Assembly (NCBI GenBank): GCA_010093815.1
Contig: ML996577.1
Strand: one strand, 5' to 3'
Origin: Pseudovirgaria hyperparasitica
Lineage: Eukaryota
DNA length: 64,000 nt
Shown here: piece after piece, positions 11,190 to 37,225 of the stretch
Layout: each line of letters begins with the position of its first letter
How positions within the stretch are numbered: position 1 is the first letter of the stretch
Position numbers and translations under genes: made by a program
The notes under the pieces: generated by a model
Databases searched by the model: none
What the model saw: only the letters and a program-made list of their open reading frames with translations
What the model was told of the DNA's origin: nothing

Positions 11190-11253
11190 TCATCATTCAT
11201 TTCATCTCATTTCATCACATTCCATCACATTCCATCCATCCATTCATTCATTC
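11190..11253. repeat. Degenerate CATT/CATC microsatellite at the 3' end of the Ric-8-like gene
   Basis: catcattcatttcatctcatttcatcacattccatcacattccatccatccattcattcatt. Confidence 0.6.
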
Positions 11254-12929
11254 AAGCTCCACAACCATATCCCGCACCCGCGGATCTGCCGCGTCGGAGA
11301 TATGCGTCACGCGCAACCTACAACCACAACAACCCACAGTCAGCAAAATGTTACAACACCCAAGGCGCAGGGAACGCGTTATAGGGAATTATAAGCTACA
11401 CACCTGTCAAACAGCACCATGACGCGCGCGGGGTCTGGCTTGGGCTTTGGCACTGCTGCTGCGCGTTCTGCGGGGGCTGGCAGGATGGCGCGGGCGGAGT
11501 TCGTCGAGGAGACGGAGGCGGAGCCGTGGGTGTGTGTTGCGGTGGAGATGGAGGTGGTGCTTGTGCGAGCGGGGCGGTCGGATGGGGAGCTGGGGGGATG
11601 TGTTTGGGAATGAGCGGAGGAGGTCGAGGAGGAAGAGGAGTGGCGGGGCGGAACGATGGCGGTGGTGGTGGTGGTAGTGGTGGTAGCGGGAGCGAGGAAG
11701 TGGAAGAGGAGGACGATGGCGTCGGCGAGGGGGCGGGACCGGGACGGGGTGTCGAGGAGGGCGGAGAGACGGGCGTGGAGGTTGATATTTGCGGAAGCTT
11801 GGGATTTGGGGTTCGGTGGGAGGAGGGTGGGTTTGAGGGATGCGGCGAACGTTGGGGAGTGTGTGGCGAGGCGTTGGAGGAGGGTGACGAGGGGGGTGAC
11901 GGTGGCGTCGAGGTCGTGGTCTGGGGAGACGGCGAGGGAGGCGTCGAGGATGGTGAGAAGGTGTTTCGCGCAGGGCGTCAGGGTGGATGTGGATAGGGGT
12001 TTTTTGGGGAGGGGAATGGTTAGGAGGCAGGTGATGAGGAGGTTTGTGGGCGCGGAGAGAGGGGGCGATTGGAGGGGTCGGCGAGTGAGGATCTTGATGA
12101 TGGATGGGAGAGCTGGGGTGAAGGCGGATGCGTGCGAGGGACAGAAGTGGGCGATGTTGAAGACGAGCTTGAGCGTCTCGTTGAGGGCTTCGTCGTCGTG
12201 GCGGGAGATGAACTTATTCTTGGCGTGGCGTTCGAGGTTCTGGTGTTCGGATCAGATTTGTGGTGACGTGGCATTCAAGGTAACTTACATTGCTCATGTG
12301 GTCAGCAAGATGGAATTTGTCAATTAGTATGTCGAAGCGTTGGGTGGTGCCGTAGGATGTGAGGAATAGGATCCTCGACATGAGGAACTCATCGTCTTTT
12401 TGAGGCTTCTTCAGTCGGCGCACCGCTCTCTCGCTGTAGCCTAGGTCGACAAAATACTGCCGCGTGATGGGTTCGGCGAGGAGAGCGTTTGCCAGACATT
12501 GCAGGGCAGCTTTCGAGGTTGTGGGAGAAGTGCTGTGGAAAGCATGGTGTGTTATAATCTCAATCCCCTGAATCTGTTAGTAGATAGCACGGTAAACAAC
12601 CCTTGGACATACGGAAGGGGTGAATATTGGCTCCGCATTCTTGGGATTCCGACCAAACACTTTCAGCTGTTCCATATGGGCATTGCGTTCTGCTTTGCGG
12701 TTAACGATGGAACTATCAAAAGCAGAGGATGACAATTACCGAATGGGAGAAGATTGACGTGGACAAAGTCATCACGGAGCTCTTTGATCAACTTTGTCAC
12801 TCTGTATAGCTTCTCTAGGATGGTGAATTAGCTATTTTCTGGTGATTTGTGGGGTAATAGTGCAGCTCGCATACCCTCACCGGATACCTGGTCGTCAGTG
12901 ATGGGCTCAGGCGGGTCAAAGTCCAGCAT
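11248..12929 (-). CDS. Ric-8/synembryn-like G-alpha GEF/chaperone protein, ~463 aa, divergent C-terminal half
   Basis: Six exons (12929-12875, 12814-12740, ~12689-12613, 12567-12289, 12239-11404, 11317-11248), all GT-AG and phase-consistent. Ric-8-type segments QLKVFGRNPKNAEPIF, AALQCLANALL, DDEFLMSRILFLTSY, ALNETLKLVFNIAHFCP, and terminal VLFDRL. Largely missed by the ORF track. Confidence 0.8.
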
Positions 12930-15919: not shown

Positions 15920-15983
15920 ATGTACTTCTCTCCTTCATGAACGCCTAATGGCGAGTTCCTCCTCTACTTCGTTCCCGTCATGA
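15920..15983 (+). promoter_or_regulatory. Three chained upstream ORFs overlapping each other and the transporter start codon
   Basis: uORF1 15920-15940 (MYFSPS*), uORF2 15937-15948 (MNA*), uORF3 15948-15983 (MASSSSTSFPS*). Junctions are ATGA, TAATG, ATGA. Presence in the mRNA is inferred. Confidence 0.45.
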
Positions 15984-17807
15984 AGACCGTCACGAATGTA
16001 TACGCTGTCTGCGCCTTCGCCGCCCTTGGTACGCTATCTTGTTTGCTCCCGTATGCCCCCCATTGTGCGCTGACTTCGTTCTAGGCGGCTGCTTGTTCGG
16101 CATGGACATCGCAAGCATGTCAGGTGTGCTTGGAACCTCGGCGTACAAAAACTACTTCAATCATCCACGAAGCTTCACCCAGGGCTACATCACGGCCTCC
16201 ATGCCCTTGGGCTCCATCTTCTCAACTCTCGGTTCGTCTTGCATGTCGGATCGCTTCTCGCGCAAAATTGCCATCCAGTTGGCCTGCATTCTGTGGATCA
16301 TCGGATCTGCGTATGTCTTGCATAGTCTATCAAAATGTCCGACGCTGATTATTCTCCGCAGACTCCAATCCGGAAGCAATGGCGTCCCTATGCTCTGCGT
16401 CGGACGTTTCGTTGCGGGCTTAGGTGTTGGTATCGCCTCTGCGGTCGTGCCTGTCTACCAGGCCGAAATTGCCCCAAAGGAAATCCGAGGCCGCGTCGTG
16501 ACTTTGCAGCAATGGGCTATTACTTGGGGCATCTTGATTCAATACTTTGTGCAGTACGGTGCCTCTCACGTAGGCAATGGACCGGACTCTCCTACTCAAA
16601 GCACCGCTGCTTTCCGCATTCCGTGGGCCCTCCAAACCATTCCCGCTTTCATTCTCGCCATCGGCCTGTTTTGGTTTCCCTATTCTCCTCGTTGGCTCGC
16701 GGGCCAGGATAGGTGGGAGGAGGCCATTATGGTGCTGGCTGACCTGCATGCCCACGGTAATGTCAAACACCCAAAAGTCCTGGCGCAGTACCGCGAGATT
16801 GAAGAAGCCCTGCGATTCGAGAAAGAGGTGGCCGCCGCGGGCTGGAGCGGCCTTCTGGACAAGAAGATTGCGAAGCGCGTCCTCAGTGGCATGTCCGTCC
16901 AGACCTGGGCTCAGCTCTGCGGCATGAACGTCATGGTAACTTTCCCCAGTTCCCTCTCTTCATGGTCAATTCACTAACCAAACCTCCCAACCAGATGTAC
17001 TACATTGTCTACATCATGGAAACCGCAAACATTGGCACCCCCCTCCTCACAGCCTCCATCCAATACATCATCAACGTCGTCCTCACCCTTCCCGCAATCC
17101 TCTACATCGACACTTGGGGCCGCCGTCCCACGCTCCTCCTCGGCGCCCTCTCCATGATGGCCCTCCTCTTCACCTCCGGCGCCCTACAAGCCATCTACGG
17201 CACGCCCACCACAGTCCCAGACTCCGACCTCTCATGGCACATTGTCGACAACGCGCCCGCATCGCGCGGCGTCGTCGCCTGCTCCTACCTCTTCGTCGCC
17301 ACCTTTGCCGTCTCCTGGGGCCCCGTCTCCTGGACATACCCGGCCGAAATCTTCCCCAACCGTGTGCGCGCCAAGGGCACCAGTCTGACGACAGCAACAA
17401 ACTGGGTGTTCAACACCGTGCTTGCGTTTGCCGTGCCGCCGCTGCTGTACCGCATCGGCTGGCGCATGTACATCCTCTTCGGCACCTTCAACGCCATCGC
17501 CTTCGTGCAAGTCTTTTTCACCATCCCCGAGACGAAGCAGTTCAGCCTCGAGGAGATGGACGCCGTTTTCGAGGGCCCCGCCTGGCGCGGCCCCAAAAAG
17601 GAGAGTCGGCTCGATGATCTCGAGCTGCAGATTGAGTGCGGCGTCGTCGATGTGCGGGGGCCCAAGGGCTTGGATTGGGAGGATCGCGGCAGTTGGGAGG
17701 GCAGCTCGAGCATGTCGAAGGGTGGCATTGGCGTCGAGACCACAGTGGAGATGCGCGAGAGCTGGGTGGATAGTGGTGGTTGGGCGGGGCCGGGTCGTGC
17801 GCTGTGA
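15980..17807 (+). CDS. Sugar porter, HGT1-like high-affinity glucose/hexose transporter
   Basis: MKTVTNVYAVCAFAALGGCLFGMDIASMS, VPVYQAEIAPKEIRGR, QQWAITWGILIQY, QLCGMNVMMYYI, WGPVSWTYPAEIFP, PETK. Introns 16029-16084, 16311-16361, 16936-16994. Confidence 0.9.
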
Positions 17808-19265: not shown

Positions 19266-20707
19266 TTTTTGCTGGCACGTTGATTCTCATGTATGTTTTG
19301 GTTGTCGTGGAAGTGTTTATATTCTTATTTTATGGAGATATGTGTGGTTGTGCGGGAGGGATTTTAAATGGGTTGGGGACTAAGCGATAGATGGGTGTGG
19401 CCGTGCGTGTTCGACTTGAACGAGAACATTTTTATTCATTTCTTTACCCGACTTCTGGTTTGATGGTTAAATGTTATATTGGCTCCAGAGACAGAGGGTG
19501 ATAACGGTGGAAAGAATAGGATGGAGTTCTGTATCAATGTGACTGTTCTGTCGCAGAGAGGAAACTTCGTGTCATGATAATTGAGTGTTCATCGGTAAAG
19601 CTCTTTATAATAACTTAGATCTACAGAAGGCAACAACAGAAGGCGACCACAGAATCAAGAACTATCTATATTAAAGCGTACATTCTAGATCCAATCTCGA
19701 CGTTCGCTCGATTTCTCGATTATGTCAAACCTTGAAAAACGGATTCTAGACTGCTAGCGAAGCCTCCTCTCGCCCACGACCATCTATTATTAGCACCAAA
19801 AACTTAAAATCACGGGTCTTACTACTACACCCCTTAGCGAGCCATACTCTAGGAGAGTCAACTCCATGAGCTCGAGCTTACTAGTTTACCATCAAACGTC
19901 GAGTGTGTATGATGCTCATCGGTCACTCGGTCACTCAGCCACGAATTGCATGACTTGAAGCCAATCGTGCATTTCCGACGGACGCGTCTTGGAAGCTCAC
20001 CCCCCTCCCCCCCCTTCCTTATGCCTCAATCAGTAGTAAGTAGCGTTGGTCCGGGGTAGTTATACCTAACCCTCTAGCAAAAAGTTCAAAGGTTACAACA
20101 AGTAAACCAATATGACCAAGCAAAGAATTAATTAATCAGCGACTGAGCATGTACACTGATATCGTACGATATGACCACTCATTCACGGACACTCACTCTG
20201 TCTGACTGGCGGGGAGCGGAATGCTAATATCAAGACTAATAAAGTGTTATGTCGCTGTTCTACACCGCAGGGAAAGTAATTGTGTAAAGAAGCTGTCGGA
20301 CTTCGGTCCGTTGTCGAGGTAGCAACAATAGCTAAGGGAAAAAAGCTTACATTAGTCTTGCGCTAGACCTGAAGTAGGTAGGAGAGATGGGGCTCATCTT
20401 CGACGCGTCAGGTCACCATCAAATTTAAACAGTTCATCACATACAGTATGTACCTTTAACGCGCGAGGTGGGAATTTAGGATTCGATAGCTGAATGCGAT
20501 TGGTGACATATCCCACCAGCCCAGTGTTGTGGTACATGAGGAGTGAGTATAGTAGGTCCATCCTATTGGAAAGCTACACGCGTCACAACCCAATAGTGCG
20601 ATATCGAATTAGGTCAGAATCCTGAAGTCGAAATGCTGTCTACATATCACACCGGTCTCATACAGAGTGACATTCACAAACATCCTGCTACTATGTCTAT
20701 CTATCCC

Positions 20708-23065
20708 TCACGACACAGTCAACGTGGCATTTCCCCGGAGATCCTCGCTCGAACTGCCAATCCAGACCACGAAATCACCAGGTTCGACGGTGTACTTCAT
20801 ACGGATGTCCCAAACACCCAACTTGCTCACATCAACCGGAATCTCCACAGTCGTCGTTTCTCCGGCCTCGATAAACATTTTCTGAAACCCCTTCAGCTGC
20901 TTGTTCGGAACCACAACCGACGCAATCACATCCTGGACGTAGAGCTGCACGACTTCCGCTCCGGCCCTCGAGCCGGAGTTTGTCACCCGGACTGACGCCG
21001 TTATAGTGTCAGACGCGCTAGCTGTCTTCGATGAAAGCGAGACGTTTGAGTAAGTAAAGTTAGTGTATGACAAGCCATAGCCGAACTCGTAGTGCGGGCG
21101 AGGATCACCCAGGACATAAGCGTGTCCAAACACAAGGGTTCCGTTGTCGGTAACATACCCCGGCTCTGGATATTGTCGCGCGGAGTTCAGATAATCATAA
21201 AAAACAGGCAACGTGCCGACGTCGTATGGTATGCCGACGCTCAGCTTCCCCGAAGGATTCACTTCACCGTAGAGTATGTCAGCGATAGCGTTTCCTCCCT
21301 GTTCAGAAGGGTAGAACTGTTGCACCACTGCGGCTGCGTTGTCGCTGATCCATGGCTCGGTTATCGGTTTCCCAGACACGTAGACGACAATCGTGGGCTT
21401 GCCAGTCTCGATGACTGCTTGTACGAGAGGGCCCATCGCTCCGACCAGAGACAGGTCAGCTACGTCAACATGTTCGCCGGTGGTGGCGTTGAGCCCTGCC
21501 CAGAGTTCTCCTTGATCCCGGGACCATGTGCCGACAAAGACGACGGCGACGTCGGCTGCCGATGCAGTTGCGACGGCCTCCGAAAATCCGGATTGATCTG
21601 CTGACCATCTTTCGCAGCCTTGAGCAAAAGTCACAGTACCAGTGGATGCGTTTCGGATGCCTTGTAGAGGTGTGACTGCGTCAGGATTGTACTGTGATCT
21701 GAAAACGACGTAGTCGCCGTAATTCATGAAATTAGACATAGGCCCGATGACTGCGACGTTTGCATCTTTAGATAGCGGGAGGATGCTATCTTTGTTTTCG
21801 AGGAGAACGATGGATTCCGCGTCAAGTTTGCGAGCAAGTTCAACGGCTTCGGGAGTGTGTATCAATGATGCAGTCTGGCTGCTTGGTACACCAAGATAGG
21901 GATTCTCGAAAAGGCCCATCTCGAACTTTACCCTGAGCAGACGAGAGACAGCAAGGTCAACAGTCCCGATGTCCAGCTTCCCAGATTCGACCAAAGAAGG
22001 TATAGAGCGGAAATTGAAGCTCCCACCCCCCATCTCAACGTCATTGCCAGCTGGTAAAGCGTACGTTGTGACAGCATCAGAGTCGATCGGATTCGTTGCG
22101 CACATCTTGAACGAGTTGCATAATCTGTCTGTTCCACCGGCATCAGACATGACAAAGTATTTGTAGCCCCACTCGTCGCGCAAGATTTCCGTCAATGTAT
22201 GATAATCTGCCACAGCTGGAACACCGTCGTATGAATGGTACGCAGACATGATACTATACGCCCCGCCATCAATGATAGTCCTGTGGAAAGACGGCAACCA
22301 AGTCGTTCGAAGTTCACGCTCGCCGCCATGAACAGGCCCTGTGTTGAGACCCTGCTCTGGAGCACTGAATCCAGCAAAATGCTTCACCATGGCGCTGACA
22401 TTGTTCGACTGTAGCCCCTTGACAAAGTTGTATCCCATCTCTCCGGCTAGATAGGGATCCTCGCCGTAGGTTTCTTCGACACGCCCGAAGCGGAGCTCGC
22501 GGGCTAGGTCGACCACGGGAGCAAATAATTGATTGACCCCAAGGGCAAGAGATTCCTGAGCAATGACCGCGGCCATTTCTTGGATAAGCTCAGGATTGAA
22601 AGAGCAAGCAAAAGCAATCGGACTGTTGAAGACGGTCGCATTGCCGATGAGGAAGCCGTGTATGCCTTCAGACTGTACAAGCGCCGGTATGCCCAAGGTT
22701 GTGTTCGCGATCAAGTAGTCTTGCGCTTTCTTGGTGTTTTCTGCGATCCATTGCTGCGGCACCGCATAGCCGACATAGAAGCTTCCCTGCTTGTACTCCA
22801 TGTTTGCTACAAGACCGGAGTAGTTGAACGCATTTGTTGAGGAATTCATCCAGTTGCCGATGTCTCCTTGCATCAATTGAGCCATCTTGTCTTCAATTGT
22901 CATCCGAGAGAGCAGATCAGCGATTCGGGCATCGACTGATGCAGTCGGGTCCTTGTAAAGCACACCGCTGGTGTTGTTGATGGTGTTGCCATTTCCGGGT
23001 TGCTGCGCTGCTACAGTTGACGTACACGCTACCCATAGGGCAAGCGGAATAGCTGTGTACCACAT
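20708..23065 (-). CDS. Secreted GH3 glycosidase, probable isoprimeverose-producing oligoxyloglucan hydrolase (IpeA-like)
   Basis: Intronless 785 aa ORF with a signal peptide. GH3 motifs KHFAG, nucleophile VMSDAGG, acid/base ATTGEHVD, C-terminal Fn3-like domain. Segments QGDIGNWMN, FYVGY, PEQGLNTGPVHGGER, GTWSRDQGELWAGLNATTGEH and QQFYPSEQGG match my recollection of Aspergillus oryzae IpeA. GH3 is secure; the subfamily call needs alignment. Confidence 0.88.
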   Translation of the reverse strand: MWYTAIPLALWVACTSTVAAQQPGNGNTINNTSGVLYKDPTASVDARIADLLSRMTIEDKMAQLMQGDIGNWMNSSTNAFNYSGLVANMEYKQGSFYVGYAVPQQWIAENTKKAQDYLIANTTLGIPALVQSEGIHGFLIGNATVFNSPIAFACSFNPELIQEMAAVIAQESLALGVNQLFAPVVDLARELRFGRVEETYGEDPYLAGEMGYNFVKGLQSNNVSAMVKHFAGFSAPEQGLNTGPVHGGERELRTTWLPSFHRTIIDGGAYSIMSAYHSYDGVPAVADYHTLTEILRDEWGYKYFVMSDAGGTDRLCNSFKMCATNPIDSDAVTTYALPAGNDVEMGGGSFNFRSIPSLVESGKLDIGTVDLAVSRLLRVKFEMGLFENPYLGVPSSQTASLIHTPEAVELARKLDAESIVLLENKDSILPLSKDANVAVIGPMSNFMNYGDYVVFRSQYNPDAVTPLQGIRNASTGTVTFAQGCERWSADQSGFSEAVATASAADVAVVFVGTWSRDQGELWAGLNATTGEHVDVADLSLVGAMGPLVQAVIETGKPTIVVYVSGKPITEPWISDNAAAVVQQFYPSEQGGNAIADILYGEVNPSGKLSVGIPYDVGTLPVFYDYLNSARQYPEPGYVTDNGTLVFGHAYVLGDPRPHYEFGYGLSYTNFTYSNVSLSSKTASASDTITASVRVTNSGSRAGAEVVQLYVQDVIASVVVPNKQLKGFQKMFIEAGETTTVEIPVDVSKLGVWDIRMKYTVEPGDFVVWIGSSSEDLRGNATLTVS

Positions 23066-23934
23066 CTTGATGAAGGACCTAGCAATAGCAAGATGCGTGA
23101 CCAGGAGTGAATGACTGTATACTTATTCTCTGAGGATATGGACTTGAGTAGGCCACTGCAACCGACTTGGTCTTGCACAAGCCGCTACGCAGCATCATCC
23201 GTGGGTCAAGCTTGCCCTTGATGCAAGATCCTCGCTAAAGTCACCGCCCATGACACATATTTGATTGATGATGGGTTTGCATTGGTGTCACGGAAGTTTT
23301 CTGAAAGATCTCTGTCTAGGGTGTATCCTGATAGTGTGGAGGAGTTGCGGCGAACATCAGCAGGGTCAGAAGCGAGCCGGATTTTGGGTCGAACAATACC
23401 CAGGAGGCATAATAATTCATGATTTGGCAAAATTGACCGGGATAGATGCAGGCGTGTCGTTCAGTATATGTCGCATGGAATCGTGTGGAGAATCGAGGTC
23501 AGGTGAAGAGATGTTGACACTCTGTAGCTATCGGTACGTTTGTCGAACTTTGGATCACGGTAGTCCTATGGGCGGATAATTCTGTCACCTTGCAACTAAC
23601 AACCCCGCAGCATAACCATTTTCGATTTGGCATCTTCTCCATATATTGCAAGATATGTTTTGGCGCCTTACTCACTGGGCCAATCAGATTCACTTCGTCC
23701 GGCAGTCGGCCTCTAGTTTTGATGCATGTATACCGCCCTGACACAGAAAGACACGCTCCGCAGGCATGGAACCACCGGGGTGGCTTTCTGGTCTCCAAGT
23801 ATCTTTTGACATGGCTTGGAGGATGGCATTCAGCCGAGCATGGAGGTTTATATACTCGGCCTAGCCGTCAGCAACGTTGAATACATCGCTGTTACATCCA
23901 GCTCTACTTCAAGCACCAGGGAAAGGGACCGAGA
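23066..23934. promoter_or_regulatory. Bidirectional promoter of the GH3 and sugar porter genes, with candidate XlnR/Xyr1 and CreA sites
   Basis: CGGATAAT 23573-23580 (CGGNTAAW); minus-strand GGCTGA 23830-23835 and GGCTAG 23861-23866; minus-strand SYGGRG at 23603-23608. Confidence 0.5.
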
Positions 23935-25618
23935 ATGGGGAGACTTTTCAATATATCGCTTGCCGTGTTTGCGGCAACGGGGTCGTTTCTTTTTGGTTAT
24001 GACTCTGGTCAGTCTTGACAGTCTTATAGAAACACAAAAGACTTACTTTCGTTCAGGCGTGATGACGGATGTCATCCAGAGTCCGCACTTTCTACAGACT
24101 TTCAACACGGTCCCAACGTCTCCTATCATCGGTGCTATCAATTCCACATTCAGTGGTGGTGCCGTGTTTGGGTCTCTGATGGGAGGCTTCACCATGGACC
24201 GCTTCGGACGCAGAATGACCATCTTTGTGGCTGCATGGATTTGTCTCGTGGGCGCCGTACTTCAGTGTGCCGCACAGAACTTGGCCATGATACTGATTGG
24301 CCGCATATTAACTGGTGAGCCTGCTGTGAGAGTAAATAGATCCTGCGCTCACATGAAGAAGGCTGGGCGGTCGGTCTGATGTCCATGTCTGTCCCAATCT
24401 ATCAATCAGAATGTGCGCATCCACGCGTACGAGGCCTCATTGTCGGATTGACCCAGCAGATGATTGGGGTGGGATTCATCATCTCTACTTGGGTAAGCTA
24501 CCTATAAGTCCACCTTTTTACTATCCACTCACATCAAATAGGTCGGATTTGGCTCTGCACACGTTCCCGCGACAAGTGCTTTCTCCTGGCGCTTTCCGTT
24601 AGCCTTTCAGTGTGTCCCCTGTATTATCCTGATAATCGGTCTCTTTTTCTTTCCCGAGTCGCCCCGCTATCTAGTGCAAACCGATCGTGAGGATGAAGCG
24701 CTAAAGGTTCTGCGCAAGCTTCACTACGATGGCACAAACGATGACTGGATTGATGAAGAATTCCGCGAGATCAGACTGACTATCCAAGCGGAGAACACTG
24801 TGACAGAACCTGGTTGGTTGATCATGTTCCAAGTACCGACGTATAGACGCCGCCTTGCACTTGCTACCTTCATTCAAGTTTTCACCCAATTTACCGGCAT
24901 CAATGTCAGTCGAATCTGTTGCCTAGCCATAGAAGTGCACTGACGGAAGTCATAGGTCATTGGTTACTACCAAACAATCATGTATAAGAACCTTGGAATC
25001 GAAGGCAATCGAAATTTGTTGGTTACGGGCATATACAATTGTGTTGGTCCCGTCGCCAACTTGATCTTCATTATATTTATACTCGACCGCGTCGGAAGAA
25101 GAAAGCCACTTCTCTTTGGAACAATCGGTATAACGCTCGCCCTGATGTGCGAAGCTATCATCAACTCTCAGTTTGATAAAGCATCATCACCGGGTCAAGA
25201 ACACAATCTCGCGATAGCCGGAGTATTCTTCATCTTCTGTGTGTCGGTCATATTCAGCTGGTCCTTCGGGCCTTGTAGTTGGGTGTACATGTCCGAGATC
25301 ATGCCTTATCAAATTCGAGGTCGTGGCAGTGCTTTTGCAACAGGAATTGGGAACTGGCTTGTCTCAACGTTTTGGTCACAAGTATCTCCGATCGCGCTTG
25401 GAGCCATAACTTGGAAGTTCTACTTCATCTTCTGCGCTTTCAATGTTCTGATTACGTTTCCCAGCATCTGGTTCTTCTTTCCGGAGACAAAGCAATTATC
25501 GCTGGAGGAGATTGATCTCTTGTTTGGAGACCGTGCGCTGGGTACTCTTCCAGAGAATCTGGATGATGCCAAGGGAGCGTCTGAATCGGTTCGGCAGGTT
25601 GAGGATACCGAAGCGTAG
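23935..25618 (+). CDS. MFS sugar porter (candidate isoprimeverose/xyloglucan-oligosaccharide importer)
   Basis: MGRLFNISLAVFAATGSFLFGYDSG, MDRFGRR, VPIYQSECAHPRVRG, FPESPRYL, QFTGINVIGYY, DRVGRR, SEIMPYQIRGRG, PETK. Four introns at about 24008-24056, 24315-24361, 24494-24541, 24905-24954. Substrate inferred from gene context only. Confidence 0.9.
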
Positions 25619-25864
25619 GGGTGCTAAGTAAAGTTCATCCATCGATGTTCTCAATAATCAGAATGCTCATGAGTCTAACTTCTTGATTGGATGAAGAGGA
25701 TTTGTAACCTATACCATGAAAGTGAAGATCTGACCCACCGGAGGCCCTCAGCAGATATGAATCCATCAATCACATGCTTCAAGACATTCCCTGACAGATA
25801 TTCACTGTAGAGACAATATTATACCCCGCGCTGTCCACGGGTAGGTCGAGTCGTGCAGCATTAG

Positions 25865-25961
25865 CGGGTAATACTCATCCATGCAGCAGGAGCTATCCTT
25901 GTCACTACAATCGATCCGTCTTTGTGTTTGACCGCACAGGCAGTAGATGACTCCGGATAAA
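25865..25961 (+). promoter_or_regulatory. Two candidate XlnR-type CGGNTAAW sites upstream of the GH31 gene
   Basis: CGGGTAAT 25865-25872 and CGGATAAA 25954-25961, 150-250 bp upstream of the ATG; CreA-like GCGGGG on the minus strand at 25824-25829. Confidence 0.5.
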
Positions 25962-26114
25962 CTCGAATCGGCTATTTCACACAAACAACTGCTGAGGACT
26001 TCAACATTCTGGACATAGTGAGCTCGTGAACAAGAGAGTCATTCTCAGCTTACATCATAGCTTGCTCACTGTCCACTGCCTACTAATCAACATTCAGGAA
26101 GTGTTGAACTCACC

Positions 26115-28556
26115 ATGAAGTTCCGCGATGGTATGCTGCGATTGCTTCGTCCTAGAAGACGACGATGCATTCTGAATGAACACTGACCTGCCACAGGAAT
26201 GTGGCTCGTCGCCGCAGACAAGACCGTTCAGTATGCCGAAGATATCCATACCATCACGCCCTCACAAAACAATCGCTCCTTGTCACTGTTATGCCCAACT
26301 CGACACATTCGGTCACGTGGCGACACACTCAACTTAGCAACCATGAGTGTCGACATTACCGCCGAATTCGACGGTGTGATATCTGTCGAAGTCGCTCACT
26401 TCCGCGGCGCACGCAAAAAAGGGCCAGACTTCGAGCTGTACCCTGATGGTAGACCTGATGGTCCATCGGAGCTACTCAAGGACGACAAAGGCACAACATT
26501 GACCAGTGGACGCCTTGCTGTGACTGTTGGTCCCAACAAGGACACCTTCGATATCAAGTTCCACGAGTCTGGTAATCCTGGTCGAGACTTGACGAGTCTG
26601 CTTAGTCGAAGCGTGGGTTTTGCATACACTCCAGCGCTCACTTCACCGAAGCAAGTGGAAGATCTGGTGGGAGCTGGTATCAAACACTACATCTTCACAC
26701 AGACAGAGCTGGGAGTCGGCGAGAGTATTCATGGTCTTGGTGAGCGCTTCGGCGCTTGGAACAAAGTTGGTCAGAGTATCGAGGTCTGGAATGAGGACGG
26801 CGGCACCAGTTCGGAGCAAGCGTACAAGAATGTCAGCTTCTGGCTCAGTAACAGAGGCTATGGTGTGTTTATCGATACACCGGATAAGATCGAGCTAGAA
26901 ATTGGAAGCGAGCGGTCATGTCGCCTACAGACCTCTGTTGAAGGCCATCGCTTAAAATGGTATATAATCTACGGTCCAACGCCAAAGGAGGTCTTGACAA
27001 AGTACTCCATACTCACTGGGAAAGCTGGCAAGGTTCCCGCATGGAGTTTTGGCCTTTGGCTATCAACCAGCTTCACGACAAACTATGACGAGGCAACCGT
27101 CAGCCACTTTCTTGAGGAAATGCAATCTCGCCAGATCCCTGTCGAAGTCTTTCACTACGACTGCTTCTGGCTGAAAGAGTTCCACTGGTGTGACTTCGAA
27201 TTCGACATTGCCGCGTTCCCAGATCCAGCTGGATCGATCAAACGTCTCAAAAGTGCGGGATTGATGCGTAAAGTCTGTGTGTGGACGAATCCGTACCTGG
27301 GCCAAGCATCCCCCATATTTGCGTACGCTGCCGAAAAGGGGTATCTACTGAAGCGACCGAACGGCGACATCTTTCAGTGGGACTTGTGGCAGACAGGTAT
27401 GGGCATAGTCGATTTCACGAATCCAGCTGCCAAAGAGTGGTTTGTCGGGTGTTTGTCTAAGCTGTTCGATCTCGGCGTAGACTGCATCAAGACAGACTTT
27501 GGTGAGCGTATTCCCACACGCGATGTTGCATGGCATGACACGAGCGTCGATCCTTCCCGTATGCACAACTACTACTCTTTCATATACAACAAATGCGTTT
27601 ATGAAGCACTTCAGTCACGATACGGCGCAGATCAAGCTGTGCTCTTCGCACGCACGGCCTGTGCGGGAACGCAACGCTTCCCACTCGTAAGTCCATATTA
27701 CTCCGTTGTGTTATCCCATAACTCACGCCAACAGATCTGGGGTGGTGACTGCGAGTCCACACCTCCTGCCCTTGCCGAGTCTCTTCGTGGCGGTCTGTCC
27801 ATTGGTCTGTCATCTCACACATACTGGTCCTCAGACATCGGCGGTTTCGAGGGCTCCCCGCCACCCTGGATCTACAAACGTTGGGTCGCGTTTGGACTTG
27901 TCTGCTCGCATTCGCGTCTGCATGGCAGTAACAGCTACCGTGTACCTTGGCTGATCGACAACGATTCCAAAGAGAAGGAGAATTGTACTGAAGTTCTAAG
28001 GACGTGGGTTCAGCTGAAGAGACGTCTGATGCCATACCTCTTCGCGCAGGCACAGGAGAGCGCGGAGAAGGGATGGCCCTTGAGTGTTCGTGCAATGGCG
28101 CTAGAGTTCCCTGACGACCCGACCGCGTGGTTCTGTGACAGGCAATTCATGTTGGGGAGTCAGTTACTTGTCGCGCCCGTTTTCAATGAAGATGGGAGCG
28201 TGGAGTTCTACCTTCCTCCGGGACGCTGGACTAACTTCTGGTCTGGAGAGATCGTGGATACGCCTGGATGGAGGAAGGAGTCCCATGGTTTTTTGACATT
28301 GCCACTGTATGTGAGAGACGGCACCTTGTTGGTGCTAGGGAAAGAGCCTGCCGAAACTGATACGGAAGGGTTTGCGTATGACTGGTTGACTGACGCCGAG
28401 TTGAGACTTTACTCAACGAAGGAAGGTGATAAGGCGAGGCTGGTTGACAAGAGCGGCGTGGATGTGGGAATTCTTGAGGTGGGTGATGCTGGCACTGTAA
28501 AGGGAATGGACTTGTTGAAAGGCTCACCTAAGGTTGCTCACATCGTGAAGGAGTAG
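26115..28556 (+). CDS. Intracellular GH31 alpha-xylosidase (YicI/XylQ/AxyA type)
   Basis: MKFRDG|MWL N-terminus with no signal peptide (intron ~26131-26196). GLGERFG, NEDGGTSSEQAYKN, WSFGLWLSTSFTTNYDE, nucleophile KTDFGERIP, acid/base WGGDC, DIGGFEG, HSRLHG. In-frame 48-nt intron 27687-27734. Confidence 0.93.
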
Positions 28557-29376
28557 CATAGCTATGTAGCAGACTTGTCAGTGTAGGTCAGACTAAATCA
28601 TAGTTTCCAGAGGCGCCTAGTGCTCTCTCAAGTCCTGCAAAAAATCCAATTATATCTCAGAACTTGACTATCGACTGTGTTTTCAGGTAAGGGGTAGGAG
28701 GTGTCTTCTTGGGTAGCTAACGGAGGATCGTAAACGGATTGTCTGTCTGGCTTGTTCAAGGGGTCCAGAGTGTAGAGCATGCTGTTTTACACTGGTTCTC
28801 TTCGAGCCAGCGACATGGCGACATATCGTATCCCGATAGTGAGACAAAAAGGTTTCCGTCATTCCTATCATGCTTTCACACGACGAGTCGGCAATTGCAT
28901 CTACTCATACGTTTCTCCCTGCGACATGGACCGTTCAGCTCGATCATGCACAGCTAAGGAACTCAAAGTTCTGGTGACAAAACAAGAGCGTCCATACGCG
29001 TCACGATGGAGCCGGTGACATTTCACTAGCAGTAATGGTGACTTTGTACACTGACCCTCTCTTTAACTATCACAGAATCCATCAAAACCACACTTTTCCT
29101 AACTTATTTTGGCCCATGGCAGACATATGCACGATATGGCCACCACACCACCGATAGATACGCTACATTCTTCACCGAATTCATGCCACGATGCGAATCA
29201 GACCCCTATATATATACCGCCCGGAACTACCACATTCTCATCCTTCCCCACGAACAATCACATCCGACTACTCTGATCCAGTTATCCAGATCCAGCTAGT
29301 CAGACACAGCTACCAAGATCCAACAATTCACCAACGACACCCCCAAAACCCGCATTCTACCTCAACATCGAAAAAT

Positions 29377-29640
29377 ATGTGTCTCTTCAGCGTCCAACGC
29401 TACGCCTGCGGCCACGGCCGATGGACCAGAATCGGCGAGCGCTGCACGCATGCACCCTTACCTGCCCCACCCGTCGTCGACGACGATTCCTATGAGGAGA
29501 ACATGTGTCCGATCAAGCAGGTCGAGGAGGAGAGCAGCGATTTCGTGTGTGCGCTGTGTGAGAAGATGATTTGCTATGGGGAGCGGAGCGGATGGGATAG
29601 GGGCAGAGAGGGCAATGAGGGGTTCCAGCGGTGGTTGTGA
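29377..29640 (+). CDS. Small Cys/His-rich hypothetical protein, 87 aa (copy 1)
   Basis: MCLFSVQRYACGHGRWTRIGERCTHAP...MCP...CALC. TATA-like CTATATATATA at ~29207. Clear paralogue immediately downstream. Confidence 0.7.
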   Translation: MCLFSVQRYACGHGRWTRIGERCTHAPLPAPPVVDDDSYEENMCPIKQVEEESSDFVCALCEKMICYGERSGWDRGREGNEGFQRWL

Positions 29641-29908
29641 ATGAAAATTGGTGCGCCGGCCATGTAATGCGGTCTGGGGATATTGTAAAGGGTTTTTGAG
29701 GCGGCGTTGGTAATGAGTGTTCTTTCACGCATGCTTGATGCTTGCTACGTGCTCAGAGCAGGATGTAGCATTCGTGGAGGTAGCTAGCTACGCAGCAGGC
29801 AATCCTCTCTTGACATATTTACCTTTTTCACATCGAATTCCCTACTCCAAGGACACTTTTGCAAACATCCAGCTTTGGTTGAACGGAACGACGACACACA
29901 GGCCCAGA

Positions 29909-30151
29909 ATGTGCATGTATATCTATTGCCGCTACAGCTGCAACCACGGTAGATGGATCCTCACTGGCGAACGTTGCTACAAGGCCCCGGTGCCGTCACA
30001 GCCGGTGCTTGATCATTTGCTTTGCGACGATGATCTCTGTCCGGATCGCGAGGTCGTGGAGGAGATGGAGCTCTATTTTTGTGGGGTGTGCGATGGGTAT
30101 GAGCCGGCGTGGGACGGGCCGGTTAATGATGATGATGTTTTGAAGTGGTAG
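29909..30151 (+). CDS. Small Cys/His-rich hypothetical protein, 80 aa (copy 2)
   Basis: MCMYIYCRYSCNHGRWILTGERCYKAP...LCP...CGVC. Same Cys/His order as 29377..29640 with near-identical spacing. Confidence 0.7.
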   Translation: MCMYIYCRYSCNHGRWILTGERCYKAPVPSQPVLDHLLCDDDLCPDREVVEEMELYFCGVCDGYEPAWDGPVNDDDVLKW

Positions 30152-31949: not shown

Positions 31950-34170
31950 ATGCCCACAAAACTCCCACATTTCAACTGGTATTTTACCCTTCAGCCTTGC
32001 GGCTGGTCACATACGTGTAGCTACTAACACGCGTTTAGGGACTCACACAAGTTGAAGAAGCGGAGATACCTCATCCTACCGTGGATTCAAGATCCCACCT
32101 CCGGCGCCATACAGGAGACAAAGAATGGCCGCGCAACTCTGGTATTCGCCCAGCGCCATGAAGCAAATACTACGGAACTCTTCTTTGACCTGTTCTTCGT
32201 CGCAAACTTGGCGCTCTTCACTCAATACCATTCAATCACCGATCACAAAGGTTTCTTGACCTATATCGGTATGCCTAGTCCGTTTTCTATCGACTGCCAA
32301 CATGCTAATTAGTTTACCAACAGAATTCTTTGGTCTCATCTGGGGAACATGGTTCTCCATAACTCTCTTCGACGTCCGCTTCGGTCTCGACTCTGTATTC
32401 GAGCGTGCCTGCAAGTTCGTACAGTATGCCGTTTTTGTAGTCTTCGCCTTGGTCGGATCCGAATTCGAACCAGGCAGCAGGTCTTATCTTCCCAAAGACA
32501 ACGTCAACTTCCGCATCCTCAGTTGGGCCTTGTGTGCCAGTCGCGCGCTGCTCATGATCCAGTACCTGGTTGTGCTCTACTTCGTCATGAAGCGTCGCTA
32601 TCGAAGGCTGTATTTCCCTCTAGCTCTCAACGCTTTCTGGTACCTTGTCACCGCCACCGTGTTCGGCGCAATGAGCGCTGCCTTTCCCAACACTGGAAAT
32701 CATCATCCTCACATCTACTTGATGTGGTACGCTGCCATATTCCTCGAAATTGTCTGCGTCCTCTCTGTCTCGACCATTTGGCGCACCTTGAGTTTCAAGC
32801 TTACTCACTTGGCTGAACGTATGAGTCTATTGACATTGATCATCATGGGTGAAGGTATCATTGGAATCACGAAGACGGTTTCGATTATCCTCGCCAAGGG
32901 GCCGGTTTTCTCATACTTCGGCCTGGTCTTGTGCATTCTATTCATCATCTTCTGGCTCTACTTCATCTACTTCGACAACACTCCTCGTGGCCACTTTGGA
33001 ACCATCCGTCAACAAGTATGGGCATTCCTCCATTTCCCATTCCACTTGTCCGTCGTTGGTATCGTTGAAGGCGCCCAGCAAATTGTTCGCGCACGTTACG
33101 TGATTGACGGCGACAAGAAATTTAACAAATCTGCTATGCAATACTGCGTCAAAGAGAATCTCGATGGTATAAAATTGCAGAACAAGCTTGCCGAACTGAT
33201 AAGATACTACGACTTTCCCTCCAAGGCTCAGTCCAACCAATTTTTGCCTGACATATACGAAAGCTTGTATGCTGTTGGTAACCACACCGACATCTGTAGT
33301 CCAGAAAACTCCGAAGGCTACGTCAATGCTAATGGCGAGATGATTGCCTATCCCGATGAACTCTGGTATCTCTGGGAGAAGACGATTTCCGCAGTGTACG
33401 CCGGCACTGTGACAGACAAACAAGTCCCCGACTTCGACGACGCCTTGACTTCCTCCATCAGCGCATGGGAGACGGCTTACAGCTACTTCTGGGGCGCCCT
33501 CGGACTCCTGGCCTTTACAACAATCCTAATGTTCTTCATGTGCCGCCGTTCGAAGCGAGACATCTACACCTACTTCGGCATTGGCGTGCGCGTGTTCGTC
33601 CTCGTCATGGCCGCCTTCCTGGGCGGCTACGCCGCCGCAAACGACGACTTCTTCACCAGCTTCATGTACTCCTCCGCCGTCGTGCCCACCGCCATGGCCT
33701 GCCTCTTCCTCATCGTCTTCGTCGACTCCATCGGCCGCGGCCTGTCCAACTACGCCCTTAGAAACACCCACAAGGACATCATCGACGACGAGGCCGAGGC
33801 CATGGAGCACGACCACCTGCACGGCCACCACCACGACCACGACGGCTCAGACGACGAGATCGAGCTCAAGCCCCAGGCCCACACCCCCGGCCTCCAACAA
33901 CAACACGAACACTGGTACGGTGGTGTCGCGTCGCCGCCTCTGCCCGGCCCGGCACCGTTGGGCTACAGTGCGGTGCAGAACCCGGGCACGCCTGGCACGC
34001 CGGCCTTTCACCAGGAGCATACCGCTTACGGCGGTGCATACAGCCACGAGAGAACACAGAGCGATACCATAGACCCCGCGTACGGCCACGCGAGGCACCC
34101 AAGCGACGCATACGATAACCCGGACTTTAGACGCACGAGTGGATTTGGCGGCGGGCCAGCGATGGCCTGA
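31950..34170 (+). CDS. LtrA (low temperature requirement A)-like multi-pass membrane protein
   Basis: ELFFDLFFVANL, HLAERMSLLTLIIMGEGII, WAFLHFPFHL motifs; many TM segments; introns ~31979-32038 and ~32269-32323. Confidence 0.82.
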
Positions 34171-34609: not shown

Positions 34610-37225
34610 TCACAACCCATTCCACCAAACCGTCTTCGCAACCTCAAACTCTCCCTTCAGATCTGCCTTTGCACTGCTATCGCCCACAAGCACATCAAAC
34701 ACGCCCTTCTCCATGATCCACGCATCTCTCTCCTCGTCCCACCAGCTCGCCGCATACTTCTTCTGCATCTCCACCGTGACCTCTTTGCTCTCGCCCGGTT
34801 CCAAGTCCAGCTTTGCGAAGCCTTTGAGCTCCTTCACCGGCCTGCCGACACCAGACTCGCGCTGCGAGACGTATACCTGCACCACCTGCGCGCCCTTGCA
34901 CGCGCCTGTGTTCTCCACATCAACCGTCGCCGTAAGGGTCGTGCCGTCATCAACGACTTTGAGGCCAGACATGTTGAACGTGGTGTAGCTTAGGCCATGC
35001 CCAAAGGGGAACAGAACGTCGCGCTTTATCTTCTCGTAGAACCTGTATCCGACATAGACGTCCTCGCCGTACAAGGCGCGGCCACGCTCACTCTTGTAGT
35101 TCAAGAACGCTGGGTTGTCCTCGTTGCGGATGGGGAAGCTGAGCGGTAGTTTCCCGCTCGGACACACTTTTCCAAAGAGGACGTCGGCGATTGCGTTGCC
35201 TGTCTCGTTTCCGCCGTACCAGGCCTGCATGAGTGCAGGTACGGAGTCGATCCACGGCATGGATACTGGCGTGCCGGATTGCATTACGACGGCGGTGCGT
35301 GGATTGGCTTTGCTGACGGCGGCGATGAGATCATTGAGTGTGCCGGGCAGATCCATATGTGGTCTATCATATCCTTCAGACTCAAATTCGGAGTTGAGAC
35401 CAGCGCAGATGATGACTTGATCGACTTCCTTTGCAAGAGCTACGGCTTTGGCGATATTTGTTTGGGAATCACTAATGGCAAGACCGCCGAGACGGATGCC
35501 GCCGCTGGCCATGACTGTTGCGCCTTTGCGCTTCACCGTTTGAGTGATGCTGGATCCCCATTGCAAGAGGAGGCTATACGTCTGGCCGCCTTTGAGGTGC
35601 TTTACACCTCTCTCTTCCTCTGTGCCGGCGGAGAAAAAGTTCTCGCCGATACGCTGGTGCGTGGCATTATCGACGACTAGCTCGCCGTCGACATAGAGTT
35701 TTGCGGTGCCGCAGACGGCAACACCAAATTCGAAGTCGCAATCTTCCTCCACAGTGATAGTGCCCTCGAGGTCCATGTAGAAGAGATCTGGATTGACCTT
35801 GGGATGGTAGTAGTCTGCGAGTAGCATAACAAGGTTGTCAATGTGGATCTCGTCGACAAGGTTGCGAACGGAGCTCGACGGTGGTTCATTGTAGACCTTG
35901 CCAATCATGCCGACTTGCCCGTCCTTTGTTCTGGTCTCAGGGGCAAGTTGTGGTAGATTCTTATAGGCAATAGCGCCAAGTGTGTATTTGACGTCCTTGG
36001 CCTGAGCCGTGATGCCCTCGAAAGGTGTTCGTGCATAGTAAGGAAGAAGGGATGCGGAGCCACCACCAGAATATGTTGCAACTTTAGCATTAGGACCAAT
36101 GACGGCGATTGTCTTTGCTGGGTCAAATGGCAAGACATTGTCGTTGTTTTTGCATAGTACGATGCCGGCAGCAGCAGTGTCTCGTAGGCGTTCCGCAGTC
36201 TCTGGCGAATCTATGGTAGTTTCCGGTGCATTTTCTGGTATGTTGAGCTTGCCAACACGATTGACCAGATTTAAAACGTTTCGAACACGCTCGTCGATCA
36301 GATGACTGGCAAGTTGTCCGCAACGGATCGCAATGTGGACGTTCTCTTTGCGGACGACTGGCGGACCAGGCATCTCCAAATCAAGTCCTGCTTTGATCGA
36401 CTGTGTCGCAGTATAAGTACCGAACCTAGATGGCTGTCAGGGGAATCCAGTGGTAGCAGTTTGCGGAACGTACCAGTCACTCATGACAAGCCCGTTGAAA
36501 CCCCATTCTTTGCGCAAAATATCCGTCAGTAGCTTGGGACTTTCACTGACATGAGTATCGTTTACTTTGTTATATGCCGTCATGTAGCATAGTGGTTTTG
36601 CATCGCGCTGCGCGATCTGAAACGGCATCAAGTAGATCTCTCGCAACGCACGTTCAGTCAAGATGGAGTTGACAGCTTGTCGTTCATCTTCTTGGTCGTT
36701 ACAAACAAAGTGTTTTACCGTAGCGGCCACGCCTGTGGACTGAATTCCAGTGACAGTTGCGGCAGTCATAGCACCAGCTAGATACGGATCTTCACTGAAG
36801 CTTTCAAACCCGCGCCCTCCAAGCGGCGAACGTTGCATATTCGTTGTCGGACCAAGAATGACATGAGCCCCCTTGGCAATGGCTTCTTTCCCTTGAAGCT
36901 GGCCACCGGACTTGATCAAAGCTGTGTCCCATGTAGCGGCAAGGCCAGTGCCACATGGGAAGCATGCAGCCGGTACGCCTTTAAAGAAGCGAGTGCCTCT
37001 CACGCCATTGGGACCATCTGATGTACGTAGTGACGGGATCTTCAGTCGAGGAATGCCCTTGGTGTGCCAAAAGTCGATTCCTGAGAGTCATATCAGGAAG
37101 TGCGGCGTGACAGTAGAAGGCTGTAAGCTGGTACCTGATAAGAGACTGATTTTCTCATCCAAATCCAATTCTTCCAACAACGCCTCTACGTCAAGTTCCT
37201 TGAAGGTCGTGTCAACGTTACTCAT
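34610..37225 (-). CDS. Intracellular GH3 beta-glucosidase with a PA14 insertion (BglI/BglH type)
   Basis: No signal peptide. [33 protein letters not shown], nucleophile [33 protein letters not shown]. Introns ~37134-37082 and ~36473-36426. Confidence 0.93.

Follow-up and report, generated by a model that had tools for sequence, protein, structure and literature searches.

The locus described here, from a 64,000-nucleotide stretch of Pseudovirgaria hyperparasitica DNA (the window), raises the question of whether neighbouring genes for a GH3 enzyme, an MFS sugar porter and a GH31 enzyme enable a fungus to produce, take up and split isoprimeverose (Xyl-alpha-1,6-Glc), and by which protein the disaccharide would enter the cell. 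We estimate at roughly 60% the probability that the trio is a conserved filamentous-ascomycete catabolic cluster for xyloglucan-derived isoprimeverose, operating through the steps proposed below. The coordinates were re-derived and agreed to the base with the original prediction of three adjacent genes with nothing between them; its 869-bp divergent gap and its gap of about 500 bp were measured as 869 and 496 bp, respectively. The arrangement is as follows:

20708..23065, minus strand: GH3 gene, 785 aa, a single exon and intronless (from the open reading frame and its translation)
23066..23934: divergent 5' region shared by GH3 and MFS, 869 bp from start codon to start codon
23534..23610, plus strand: intron in the MFS 5' UTR, 77 nt, GT..AG, contig joint 23532>23610, with 3' end ACCCCGCAG and containing CGGATAAT
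join(23935..24007, 24057..24314, 24362..24492, 24542..24904, 24956..25618), plus strand: MFS sugar-porter coding sequence, 495 aa, five coding exons
25619..26114, plus strand: intergenic region between the MFS stop and the GH31 start, 496 bp, with the GH31 promoter inside
join(26115..26130, 26197..27686, 27735..28556), plus strand: GH31 coding sequence, 775 aa, three exons

The spliced translation of the MFS gene was identical to the annotated protein P0003 (495 aa) and matched an NCBI protein at 100% identity, and that of the GH31 gene was identical to P0242 (775 aa). Spliced contigs from two runs of one public sample, whose depth cannot rank the genes, covered GH3, MFS and GH31 and skipped all six coding introns as well as the 77-nt 5' UTR intron, with GT..AG ends in seven out of seven. 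GH3 was covered by a contig spanning 20449-23504, and the divergent region consists mostly of the 5' UTRs of GH3 and MFS, with transcript contig ends meeting or overlapping near 23501-23532. Here, records 1 and 2 of X1 stop at 23504 and about 23501, and record 6 of X2 spans both genes. Elsewhere in the window, a second sugar porter is found 3 kb away (15949-17804), and 6 kb downstream of the trio there is a GH3 of KmBglI type that carries a PA14 domain.

The GH3 protein comprises the Pfam domains Glyco_hydro_3, Glyco_hydro_3_C and Fn3-like (E-values of 6.7e-55, 6.6e-50 and 1.9e-25, respectively). A search of the PDB returned the Aspergillus oryzae IpeA structures 5yot and 5yqs with 1155 bits over residues 37-784, followed by the next GH3 family, that of beta-xylosidase 7zb3, with 456 bits, which bears out the originally predicted match to IpeA along its length. 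The identity to IpeA is about two-thirds, as estimated from bit scores rather than counted, and the other GH3 of the window reached only 156 bits against the same enzyme. The motifs SDAGG (D308) and TGEH (E531) were identical to IpeA in the alignment, and both residues are read as catalytic because they correspond, with a numbering offset of +8 or +9, to the catalytic D299 and E523 of PmIPase (PMC6325624), which produces isoprimeverose despite merely 65% identity to IpeA (PMC6325624). The N-terminus, MWYTAIPLALWVACTSTVAA, is hydrophobic, with a maximum Kyte-Doolittle value of 2.17 over 10 residues, and would be a putative secretion signal. Taken together, the protein is likely to be a secreted isoprimeverose-producing oligoxyloglucan hydrolase orthologous to IpeA.

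The GH31 protein contains three Pfam GH31 domains, and its best match among solved structures was Escherichia coli YicI (705 bits in the PDB search), with the second at 302 bits. The Cys-Phe motif DCFW (at 327) and the catalytic Asp motifs KTDFGE (at 437) and WGGDC (at 504) aligned identically to YicI and were kept in 117, 119 and 117 of 120 GH31 relatives, respectively; the Cys-Phe pair reportedly determines xylose specificity, following work by Okuyama in 2006. The protein starts with MKFRDGMWLVAADK, which yielded a maximum Kyte-Doolittle value of 0.87 and no hydrophobic N-terminus, in agreement with the signal-less YicI-type enzyme that had been predicted. Such an N-terminus was present in none of the 120 GH31 relatives versus 97 of 119 GH3 relatives, so that the predicted split between compartments is conserved among relatives. 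By its sequence, the protein is assigned as a signal-less YicI/AxyA-type (GH31_3) alpha-xylosidase that would act on isoprimeverose, the link to A. oryzae AxyA being one of subfamily, made through the YicI match rather than by direct sequence comparison. AxyA is described in PMC10792220 as a GH31_3 enzyme that lacks a signal peptide and whose Km for isoprimeverose is 0.2 mM; AxyA and YicI-type enzymes favour this substrate over XXXG or XLLG (PMC10792220). Fungi also possess extracellular alpha-xylosidases such as AxyB (PMC10792220), which provide a further route besides uptake of the disaccharide.

The protein encoded between both enzyme genes is classed as a member of the sugar-porter family, with Sugar_tr detected by Pfam in exons 4 (1.9e-24) and 5 (1.4e-30) and with relatives carrying PF00083. 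Its full-length matches among solved structures were GlcP (192 bits), STP10 (182 bits) and XylE (139 bits), and these nearest relatives of known structure carry monosaccharides. The search turned up no characterised orthologue, the source names ("glucose transporter", "sugar carrier protein A") being automatic. A search of the published literature revealed neither a fungal isoprimeverose transporter nor a clustering of these genes. The MFS protein is a candidate isoprimeverose importer solely by virtue of its conserved linkage.

This linkage was assessed in a metagenome set of 59 non-redundant MFS loci, 14 of which had full flanks, defined as at least 6 kb upstream and at least 3 kb downstream. 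Among these fully flanked environmental fungal loci, both GH3 and GH31 were found in 11, GH31 only in one, and neither in two. When a single flank of 3 kb or more was required, 31 loci qualified and the corresponding figures were 12, eight and ten, plus one locus with GH3 only. The trio occurs in at least four gene orders, and the genes beyond it vary between loci and are not conserved. In named genomes, for which the counts were tallied by hand from tables and a common contig was recognised by its length, MFS lies on the contig of GH31 in 24 of 26 species and on that of GH3 in 20 of 30, with GH3 on a separate contig in the other ten; the locus tags are consecutive in seven species, and the species with the trio span four classes of Pezizomycotina. 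One well-supported clade of MFS relatives (16 rows, support 99/97) lacks both neighbours, long-flank loci included. With the trio found again in many other fungi, its adjacency is far beyond chance. It is a conserved fungal catabolic gene cluster whose synteny is kept beyond that of the neighbouring genes. Co-location in other genomes had been set beforehand as a check, and the trio was indeed recovered in the flanked loci and named species given above.

The promoters were inspected for binding motifs, and three short sequences were noted in the window:

23573..23580, plus strand: CGGATAAT, inside the MFS 5' UTR intron, matching the XlnR/AraR monomer site CGGNTAAW
25865-25872: CGGGTAAT, in the MFS-GH31 intergenic region
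25954-25961: CGGATAAA, in the MFS-GH31 intergenic region

A contig end lies near 25988, downstream of the latter two. CGGNTAAW is given as the XlnR/AraR monomer site in PMC8180590 and PMC6323846, the former of which also reports sites of this type from pentose catabolic genes. The merged promoters of 25 loci, 33,161 bp in total, contain 24 copies of CGGNTAAW, whereas shuffles gave 7.7 on average and 15 at most; the loci are related to one another and the counts are thus not independent. The density of the motif was 0.72 per kb in promoters versus 0.115 per kb in flanking DNA beyond the cluster. When 7-mers were ranked de novo, CCCCGCA (CreA-like), GGCTAAA and CGGTTAA came within the top four; the window's own promoters contain no GGCTAA and just one GGCTAR. 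The trio promoters show an enrichment of motifs of the XlnR/AraR and CreA types.

In the mechanism that we propose, the secreted GH3, judged by the homology of its class, would release isoprimeverose from xyloglucan fragments. The adjacent MFS protein, linked as it is to an enzyme that needs an intracellular substrate, would import the disaccharide, probably as a proton symporter, and the cytosolic GH31_3, whose class and signal-less start were established, would cleave it to xylose and glucose. The freed xylose may then act on all three promoters via an XlnR/AraR-type activator, together with CreA-type repression, as suggested by the motif enrichment. The endo-xyloglucanase and the beta-galactosidase needed upstream would be encoded elsewhere; neither was found among the 81 open reading frames of at least 130 aa in the window, and the description of the module as self-contained was therefore an overstatement. 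The same reading frames contain no Zn2Cys6 domain, and the trio has no regulator gene. A more specific proposal, to which we give even odds, holds that the trio-linked MFS clade is the missing fungal isoprimeverose:proton symporter, a disaccharide carrier that would have arisen inside monosaccharide-like sugar porters, with an origin separate from that of the GPH and ABC importers of bacteria. The trio would then represent a PUL-like unit of a eukaryote ("make, import, cleave"), held by selection through repeated rearrangement in at least four Pezizomycotina classes.

The alternative that survives best, which we nonetheless consider unlikely, accepts a real and xyloglucan-related cluster in which the MFS protein is a xylose/glucose proton symporter or sensor, kept only by common XlnR-type regulation, while the GH31 substrate enters by another carrier. 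It is favoured by the compact size of the protein (495 aa), the monosaccharide cargo of all its nearest solved relatives, the enrichment of pentose-type CGGNTAAW sites and the second sugar porter nearby. However, there is no disaccharide carrier among the solved sugar-porter structures, so the list of structural matches cannot discriminate the cargo. Moreover, the tightest linkage is that of MFS with the cytosolic GH31 (24/26 species and 20/31 metagenome groups), as expected for a carrier and the enzyme for its cargo, and other xylose-regulated genes are not retained next to MFS. Somewhat more doubtful still is the import by MFS of larger xyloglucan oligosaccharides or another alpha-xyloside, on which GH31 would act inside the cell with intracellular beta-glucosidases. 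This would account for the KmBglI-type GH3 downstream, for MFS-GH31 pairs without a nearby GH3 in 8/31 groups, and for bacterial GH31 relatives that adjoin ABC oligosaccharide importers (11/31 loci), GH42 (4/31) or GH3 (2/31). Against it, AxyA/YicI-type enzymes show the substrate preference cited above, the IpeA-type GH3 of the cluster would make exactly isoprimeverose, and the downstream GH3 is not kept beside the trio in other loci. Finally, a chance neighbourhood of the three genes, with no functional link, is scarcely credible: nothing beyond the general rarity of fungal catabolic clusters speaks for it, and the same families lie together in 11 of the 14 flanked loci and in named species of four classes, with several gene orders and orientations among them and with all other neighbours changing.

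Under the preferred reading, that of a cluster for isoprimeverose, the linkage has a practical consequence. In the pathway as modelled for A. oryzae, an intracellular enzyme splits part of the isoprimeverose that is made extracellularly, and the accessible papers name no importer; the conserved linkage points to one specific and easily testable transporter family. If confirmed, such an importer would complete the fungal xyloglucan-oligosaccharide pathway, supply a part for yeast using xyloglucan-derived sugars or for isoprimeverose-accumulating strains, and provide a clear case of selection holding a fungal carbohydrate-use cluster together.

As to known systems, both enzymes and the pathway have already been characterised in A. 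oryzae, whose secreted IpeA (GH3) and intracellular AxyA (GH31_3) belong to the same families as the trio enzymes, with the same split between compartments. According to PMC10792220 and PMC11975219, both ipeA and axyA respond to xyloglucan oligosaccharides or xylose by induction; in the accessible portions of these papers no transporter is named, the word "transport" is absent, and no clustering of ipeA with axyA is described. In contrast to that pathway as described, the trio has a conserved sugar porter between both enzyme genes.

Among fungal clusters that pair a permease with an intracellular glycosidase, the MAL genes of A. oryzae (malP, malT and MalR) likewise lie together. They follow the same logic, with a disaccharide permease gene beside that of an intracellular hydrolase, and malP and malT are reported as MalR targets in PMC8180590. 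The trio differs in having no regulator gene, in including a secreted producer enzyme and in its substrate. The XyGUL of Bacteroidota and Cellvibrio also consist of co-located genes that move xyloglucan fragments inward, with a GH31 alpha-xylosidase and a GH3, the GH31 being of subfamily 4 instead of subfamily 3 as in the trio (PMC10792220). The trio, however, lacks both a SusC/SusD pair and an operon, and comprises only three monocistronic genes in a eukaryote. This likeness is one of analogy and not of membership; a strict PUL was rejected, as the host is fungal and the 81 reading frames of at least 130 aa contain no SusC/SusD-like domains.

In the isoprimeverose pairs xylP-xylQ of Lactobacillus pentosus and yicJ-yicI of E. 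coli, an importer gene adjoins that of a cytosolic YicI-type GH31 alpha-xylosidase, and these bacterial carriers (xylP and yicJ) are members of the GPH family. Close GH31 relatives sampled from bacteria have mostly ABC systems alongside (11 of 31 loci). With importers adjoining GH31 in bacteria and the trio widespread in Pezizomycotina, the claim that few competitors can use the disaccharide went too far. The import-then-cleave logic is the same, but the fungal carrier would be a sugar-porter MFS, unlike the bacterial GPH and ABC importers, which argues that the pairing of carrier and GH31 arose independently. Compared with the bacterial pairs, the fungal trio additionally possesses a predicted secreted enzyme that would make the disaccharide.

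Genes in the window were called from stop-to-stop open reading frames (ORFs) and their translations, and the resulting gene models were checked by script. The last exon of the MFS gene, used as a protein query, retrieved a 100% identical NCBI protein (P0003; 495 residues), titled 'general substrate transporter [Pseudovirgaria hyperparasitica]', and a search with the GH31 protein retrieved an annotated protein of 775 residues (P0242) from the same species, a dothideomycete of the Acrospermales. The trio, whose genes are already annotated in public genomes, was modelled as follows:

20708..23065, minus strand: GH3 gene, single exon, 785 residues
join(23935..24007, 24057..24314, 24362..24492, 24542..24904, 24956..25618), plus strand: MFS gene, translating exactly to P0003
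join(26115..26130, 26197..27686, 27735..28556), plus strand: GH31 gene, translating exactly to P0242
23534..23610, plus strand: intron of 77 nt (GT..AG) in the MFS 5' UTR, skipped by the contigs of public runs

The start codons of the GH3 and MFS genes are separated by 869 bp, and the MFS stop lies 496 bp before the GH31 start. Because the models reproduced P0003 and P0242 along with both gaps, the coordinates and spacings of the original prediction proved exact.

Contigs were taken from two public runs of one sample from one study, the kind of run being unrecorded. They were used for joining across introns, whereas contig depth, which is unable to rank genes, was left unused. Since all six coding introns of the trio were skipped, as was the 5' UTR intron, we infer that the contigs derive from spliced RNA. 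Their coverage was as follows:

about 20449 to 23504: GH3 gene
about 23501 to 25790: MFS gene
about 25988 to 28638: GH31 gene

In one of the two runs, a single contig joined the GH3 and MFS ends, so the divergent 5' ends of these genes meet or overlap head to head near 23.5 kb (23501–23610); the bridging contig does not establish a single transcript. Outside the trio, the following features were recorded:

29158-29637 and 29717-30148, plus strand: two tandem small ORFs with a common Cys-rich stretch (C.HGRW...GERC...C...C), for neither of which Pfam returned a family; the region was partly covered by one contig per run, from ~29030 to 29500, the end of the compared stretch
32260-34167, plus strand: ORF of 636 residues, matching LtrA (low temperature requirement A; 7.6e-25), a family of bacteria
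10001-16000: pronounced GC skew (+0.24 to +0.33 at 10–14 kb, -0.19 at 14–16 kb), with several overlapping long ORFs on both strands
11382-12251, minus strand: Ric8/synembryn-like ORF within the skewed stretch

Both enzymes belong to characterised families and are unremarkable within them. Pfam assigned GH3 N-terminal, GH3 C-terminal and Fn3-like domains to the GH3 protein, and its best matches among all solved structures were the isoprimeverose-producing IpeA of Aspergillus oryzae and variants thereof (5yot/5yqs, 1155 bits over residues 37–784; 21ji, IpeA or a variant, 1170 bits), with β-xylosidase as the next family at 456 bits. Judged from bit scores rather than counted, it would be about two-thirds identical to IpeA; GH3 relatives at 1202–1213 bits show 68–70% identity. 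The other GH3 of the window (34613..37087, minus strand), which carries a PA14 insert and has Kluyveromyces marxianus β-glucosidase I (BglI) as its best match, served as a control and scored 514 bits against the latter but only 156 against IpeA. Its gene is located 6 kb downstream from the trio, an adjacency that was not kept in other loci. In the alignment, the SDAGG and TGEH columns of the trio GH3 were the same as in IpeA, and their D308 and E531 lie 9 and 8 residues past the catalytic D299 and E523 that the available text of PMC6325624 gives for the Phaeoacremonium isoprimeverose-producing enzyme. According to the same text, this enzyme is just 65% identical to IpeA yet produces isoprimeverose, as does an Oerskovia enzyme with 33% identity. 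A hydrophobic N-terminus was found in the trio GH3 and in 97 of 119 relatives.

Three GH31 domains were assigned by Pfam to the GH31 protein, whose best solved match was Escherichia coli YicI (705 bits; next match, 302 bits). Its DCFW, KTDFGE and WGGDC motifs match YicI exactly in the alignment and recurred in 117, 119 and 117 of 120 relatives, respectively, none of which had a hydrophobic N-terminus (0/120). In A. oryzae, as described in the available text of PMC10792220, AxyA (GH31_3) is intracellular with a Km of 0.2 mM for isoprimeverose, AxyB (GH31_5) is extracellular and AxyC belongs to GH31_4.

The MFS protein belongs to the sugar-porter family, and its nearest solved relatives are all monosaccharide carriers (GlcP, 192 bits; STP10, 182; XylE, 139). 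Since no disaccharide carrier is among the matches listed, these do not appear to discriminate between substrates. A monosaccharide or sensor role is one that we consider unlikely. Import of larger oligosaccharides or of other α-xylosides we hold to be rather improbable next to a GH3 whose expected product is isoprimeverose itself. Automatically named relatives, 64–77% identical in the C-terminal half, are found across Pezizomycotina, and no characterised member was recognised among these protein-search matches. At a distance of 3 kb from the GH3 gene, the window has a second sugar porter (15949-17804, plus strand), whose two long ORFs match Sugar_tr at 5e-56 and 9e-42 and which is just ~30% identical to the trio MFS across the C-terminal exon.

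Linkage was assessed in metagenome DNA, in which a scan with P0003 yielded 79 loci that were searched by tblastn with the three trio proteins at cut-offs of at least 50% identity for MFS and at least 55% for GH3 and GH31. One locus (L072; 36% identity) was left out, and merging at 97% DNA identity gave 59 non-redundant groups.

Enzyme genes beside the MFS gene in metagenome groups
Flank of 3 kb or more on one side (31 groups): both 12, GH31 only 8, GH3 only 1, neither 10
Flanks of 6 kb or more upstream and of 3 kb or more downstream (14 groups): both 11, GH31 only 1, GH3 only 0, neither 2

A neighbour was also visible in three short groups. The genes occurred in at least four orders, including GH3(-) MFS(+) GH31(-), GH3(-) GH31(+) MFS(+), GH31(-) GH3(+) MFS(+) and the window's own, GH3(-) MFS(+) GH31(+). 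Among 105 other ORFs taken from 14 long loci, Pfam revealed no additional gene that stays beside the trio, save a GH5 in one arrangement. This GH5 lies just past the MFS gene in three GH31(-) GH3(+) MFS(+) loci (L037:12077-13481, L051:13310-14749 and L067:12866-13633) and resembles exo-1,3-β-glucanases such as Candida XOG1 (86–97 bits) rather than a xyloglucanase; it may be a fourth cluster member in that lineage.

A maximum-likelihood tree of the MFS C-terminal exon was computed with a careful search from 44 rows, with the neighbour-less groups L049/50, L064 and L078 left out. The neighbour-less loci of the tree, long-flanked ones included, formed a single 16-row clade (support 99/97; L020, L023, L026, L032, L044, L070 and relatives) with neither GH3 nor GH31 nearby, into which two long-branch paralogues were probably drawn falsely. 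This clade represents either paralogy or a lineage in which the linkage was lost. The window fell in a clade of 17 rows (support 88/97), where GH31 was found in all 12 rows with usable flanks and GH3 as well in six of these, the window included; the five rows without a neighbour were contigs shorter than 2.3 kb.

For named genomes, the hit tables of the three proteins were cross-tabulated by hand, with equal size of the 'longest contig' taken as a proxy for the same contig. By this proxy, MFS and GH31 shared a contig in 24 of the 26 species common to both tables (all but Aplosporella and Diplodia seriata). The same held for MFS with GH3 in 20 of 30 (Aspergillus spectabilis, Pyrenochaeta, Amniculicola and Ascochyta lentis being among the ten that differed) and for all three in 14 of 18. 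Some shared contigs were small (Periconia macrospinosa, 54 kb; Malbranchea, 21 kb; Lepidopterella, 11.7 kb for MFS and GH31), and locus tags were consecutive in seven species, although 'DRAFT' tags may count proteins and not indicate position.

Consecutive locus tags
Malbranchea: 4131 / 4132 / 4133
Polytolypa: 03281 / 03282
Helicocarpus: 02060 / 02061
Hymenoscyphus albidus: 274 / 275
Thermocarpiscus: 5114 / 5115
Cudoniella: g8016 / g8017
Chlorociboria: g1360 / g1361

The linked species belong to four classes (Dothideomycetes, Eurotiomycetes, Leotiomycetes and Sordariomycetes), and set beside this distribution, chance adjacency of the three genes in the window is scarcely credible. What is new in these data is that the two enzymes are strongly and conservedly linked with one sugar-porter clade despite repeated rearrangement.

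The promoters were inspected for CGGNTAAW, which the available texts of PMC8180590 and PMC6323846 describe as a competitive XlnR/AraR binding site in A. oryzae. Three sites were located in the two promoters of the window, where chance would provide ~0.12 CGGDTAAW sites per region:

23573: CGGATAAT, in the MFS 5' UTR intron, a short distance upstream of where the GH3 contig ends
25865: CGGGTAAT, upstream of the GH31 contig end
25954: CGGATAAA, upstream of the GH31 contig end

In the merged promoters of 25 loci (33,161 bp, window included), CGGNTAAW occurred 24 times and was present in 15 of the loci, whereas 300 shuffles averaged 7.7 occurrences and reached 15 at most; its density was 0.72 per kb, compared with 0.115 per kb in flanking sequence (173 kb) beyond the cluster. 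Every 7-mer seen 10 or more times was also ranked de novo, with no prior motif; because the 25 loci are related to each other, none of these motif counts are independent.

Enriched 7-mers in the merged promoters
CCCCGCA: observed 25, expected 3.0; 19/25 loci; likely contains the CreA-type GCGGGG
GGCTAAA: observed 12, expected 1.1; 9/25 loci; likely the classical XlnR core
ACCCCGC: observed 20, expected 3.3; 17/25 loci; overlaps CCCCGCA
CGGTTAA: observed 10, expected 1.4; 8/25 loci; likely of the CGGNTAAW type

The two promoters of the window held no canonical XlnR site (GGCTAA), and the motif count revealed no enrichment of the CLR-2-type CGGN8CCG. The 3' end of the 77-nt UTR intron (ACCCCGCAG) coincides with the top enriched k-mer (19/25 loci).

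The simplest explanation of the linkage is that the MFS protein imports the product of the GH3 for the cytosolic GH31; it would thus carry GH3-made isoprimeverose into the cell. We assign a probability of roughly 0.6 to the full make-import-cleave mechanism, of which we infer the transport step and the co-induction. The isoprimeverose pathway as such is already established in A. oryzae. The word 'transport' is absent from the available texts of PMC10792220 and PMC11975219, and the literature searched, which most subscription-journal papers fall outside, contained neither a fungal isoprimeverose transporter nor an ipeA–MFS–axyA cluster; a search by locus tag returned 0 papers, and a paper on the A. 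niger transportome mentions neither GH31 nor xylosidase nor xyloglucan. With the trio, the import step that had been missing can be put to a direct test.

With respect to known systems, a scan of prokaryote genomes yielded 80 loci with GH31 relatives (L080–L159; 41–55% identical) from Bacillota, Chloroflexota and others, and this high identity between fungal and bacterial GH31 raises the question of an old transfer. In 31 of the 52 fully flanked loci, examined within 2 kb of the GH31 gene, parts of ABC sugar importers were found 11 times, GH42 β-galactosidase four times, GH3 twice and MFS_1 once. With such neighbours, an importer adjoining a cytosolic α-xylosidase can be called common in bacteria, where xylP–xylQ and yicJ–yicI are such pairs; the bacterial carriers are of other families, whereas the fungal trio has a sugar-porter MFS. 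In Trichoderma reesei, the MFS gene Tr69957 presumably lies near the GH31 gene Tr69944. The latter is an induced α-xylosidase (Tr_69944; PMC3648571; PMC8825865), and the former is probably of another family than the trio MFS because it clusters with maltose permeases (PMC5879799); these three papers state no adjacency of the two. Aspergillus fumigatus Z5 has an adjoining, co-induced pair of β-glucosidase and MFS genes (Y699_04562/04563; PMC4469458). We file the trio with the known fungal catabolic clusters of permease plus glycosidase and with the isoprimeverose pathway.
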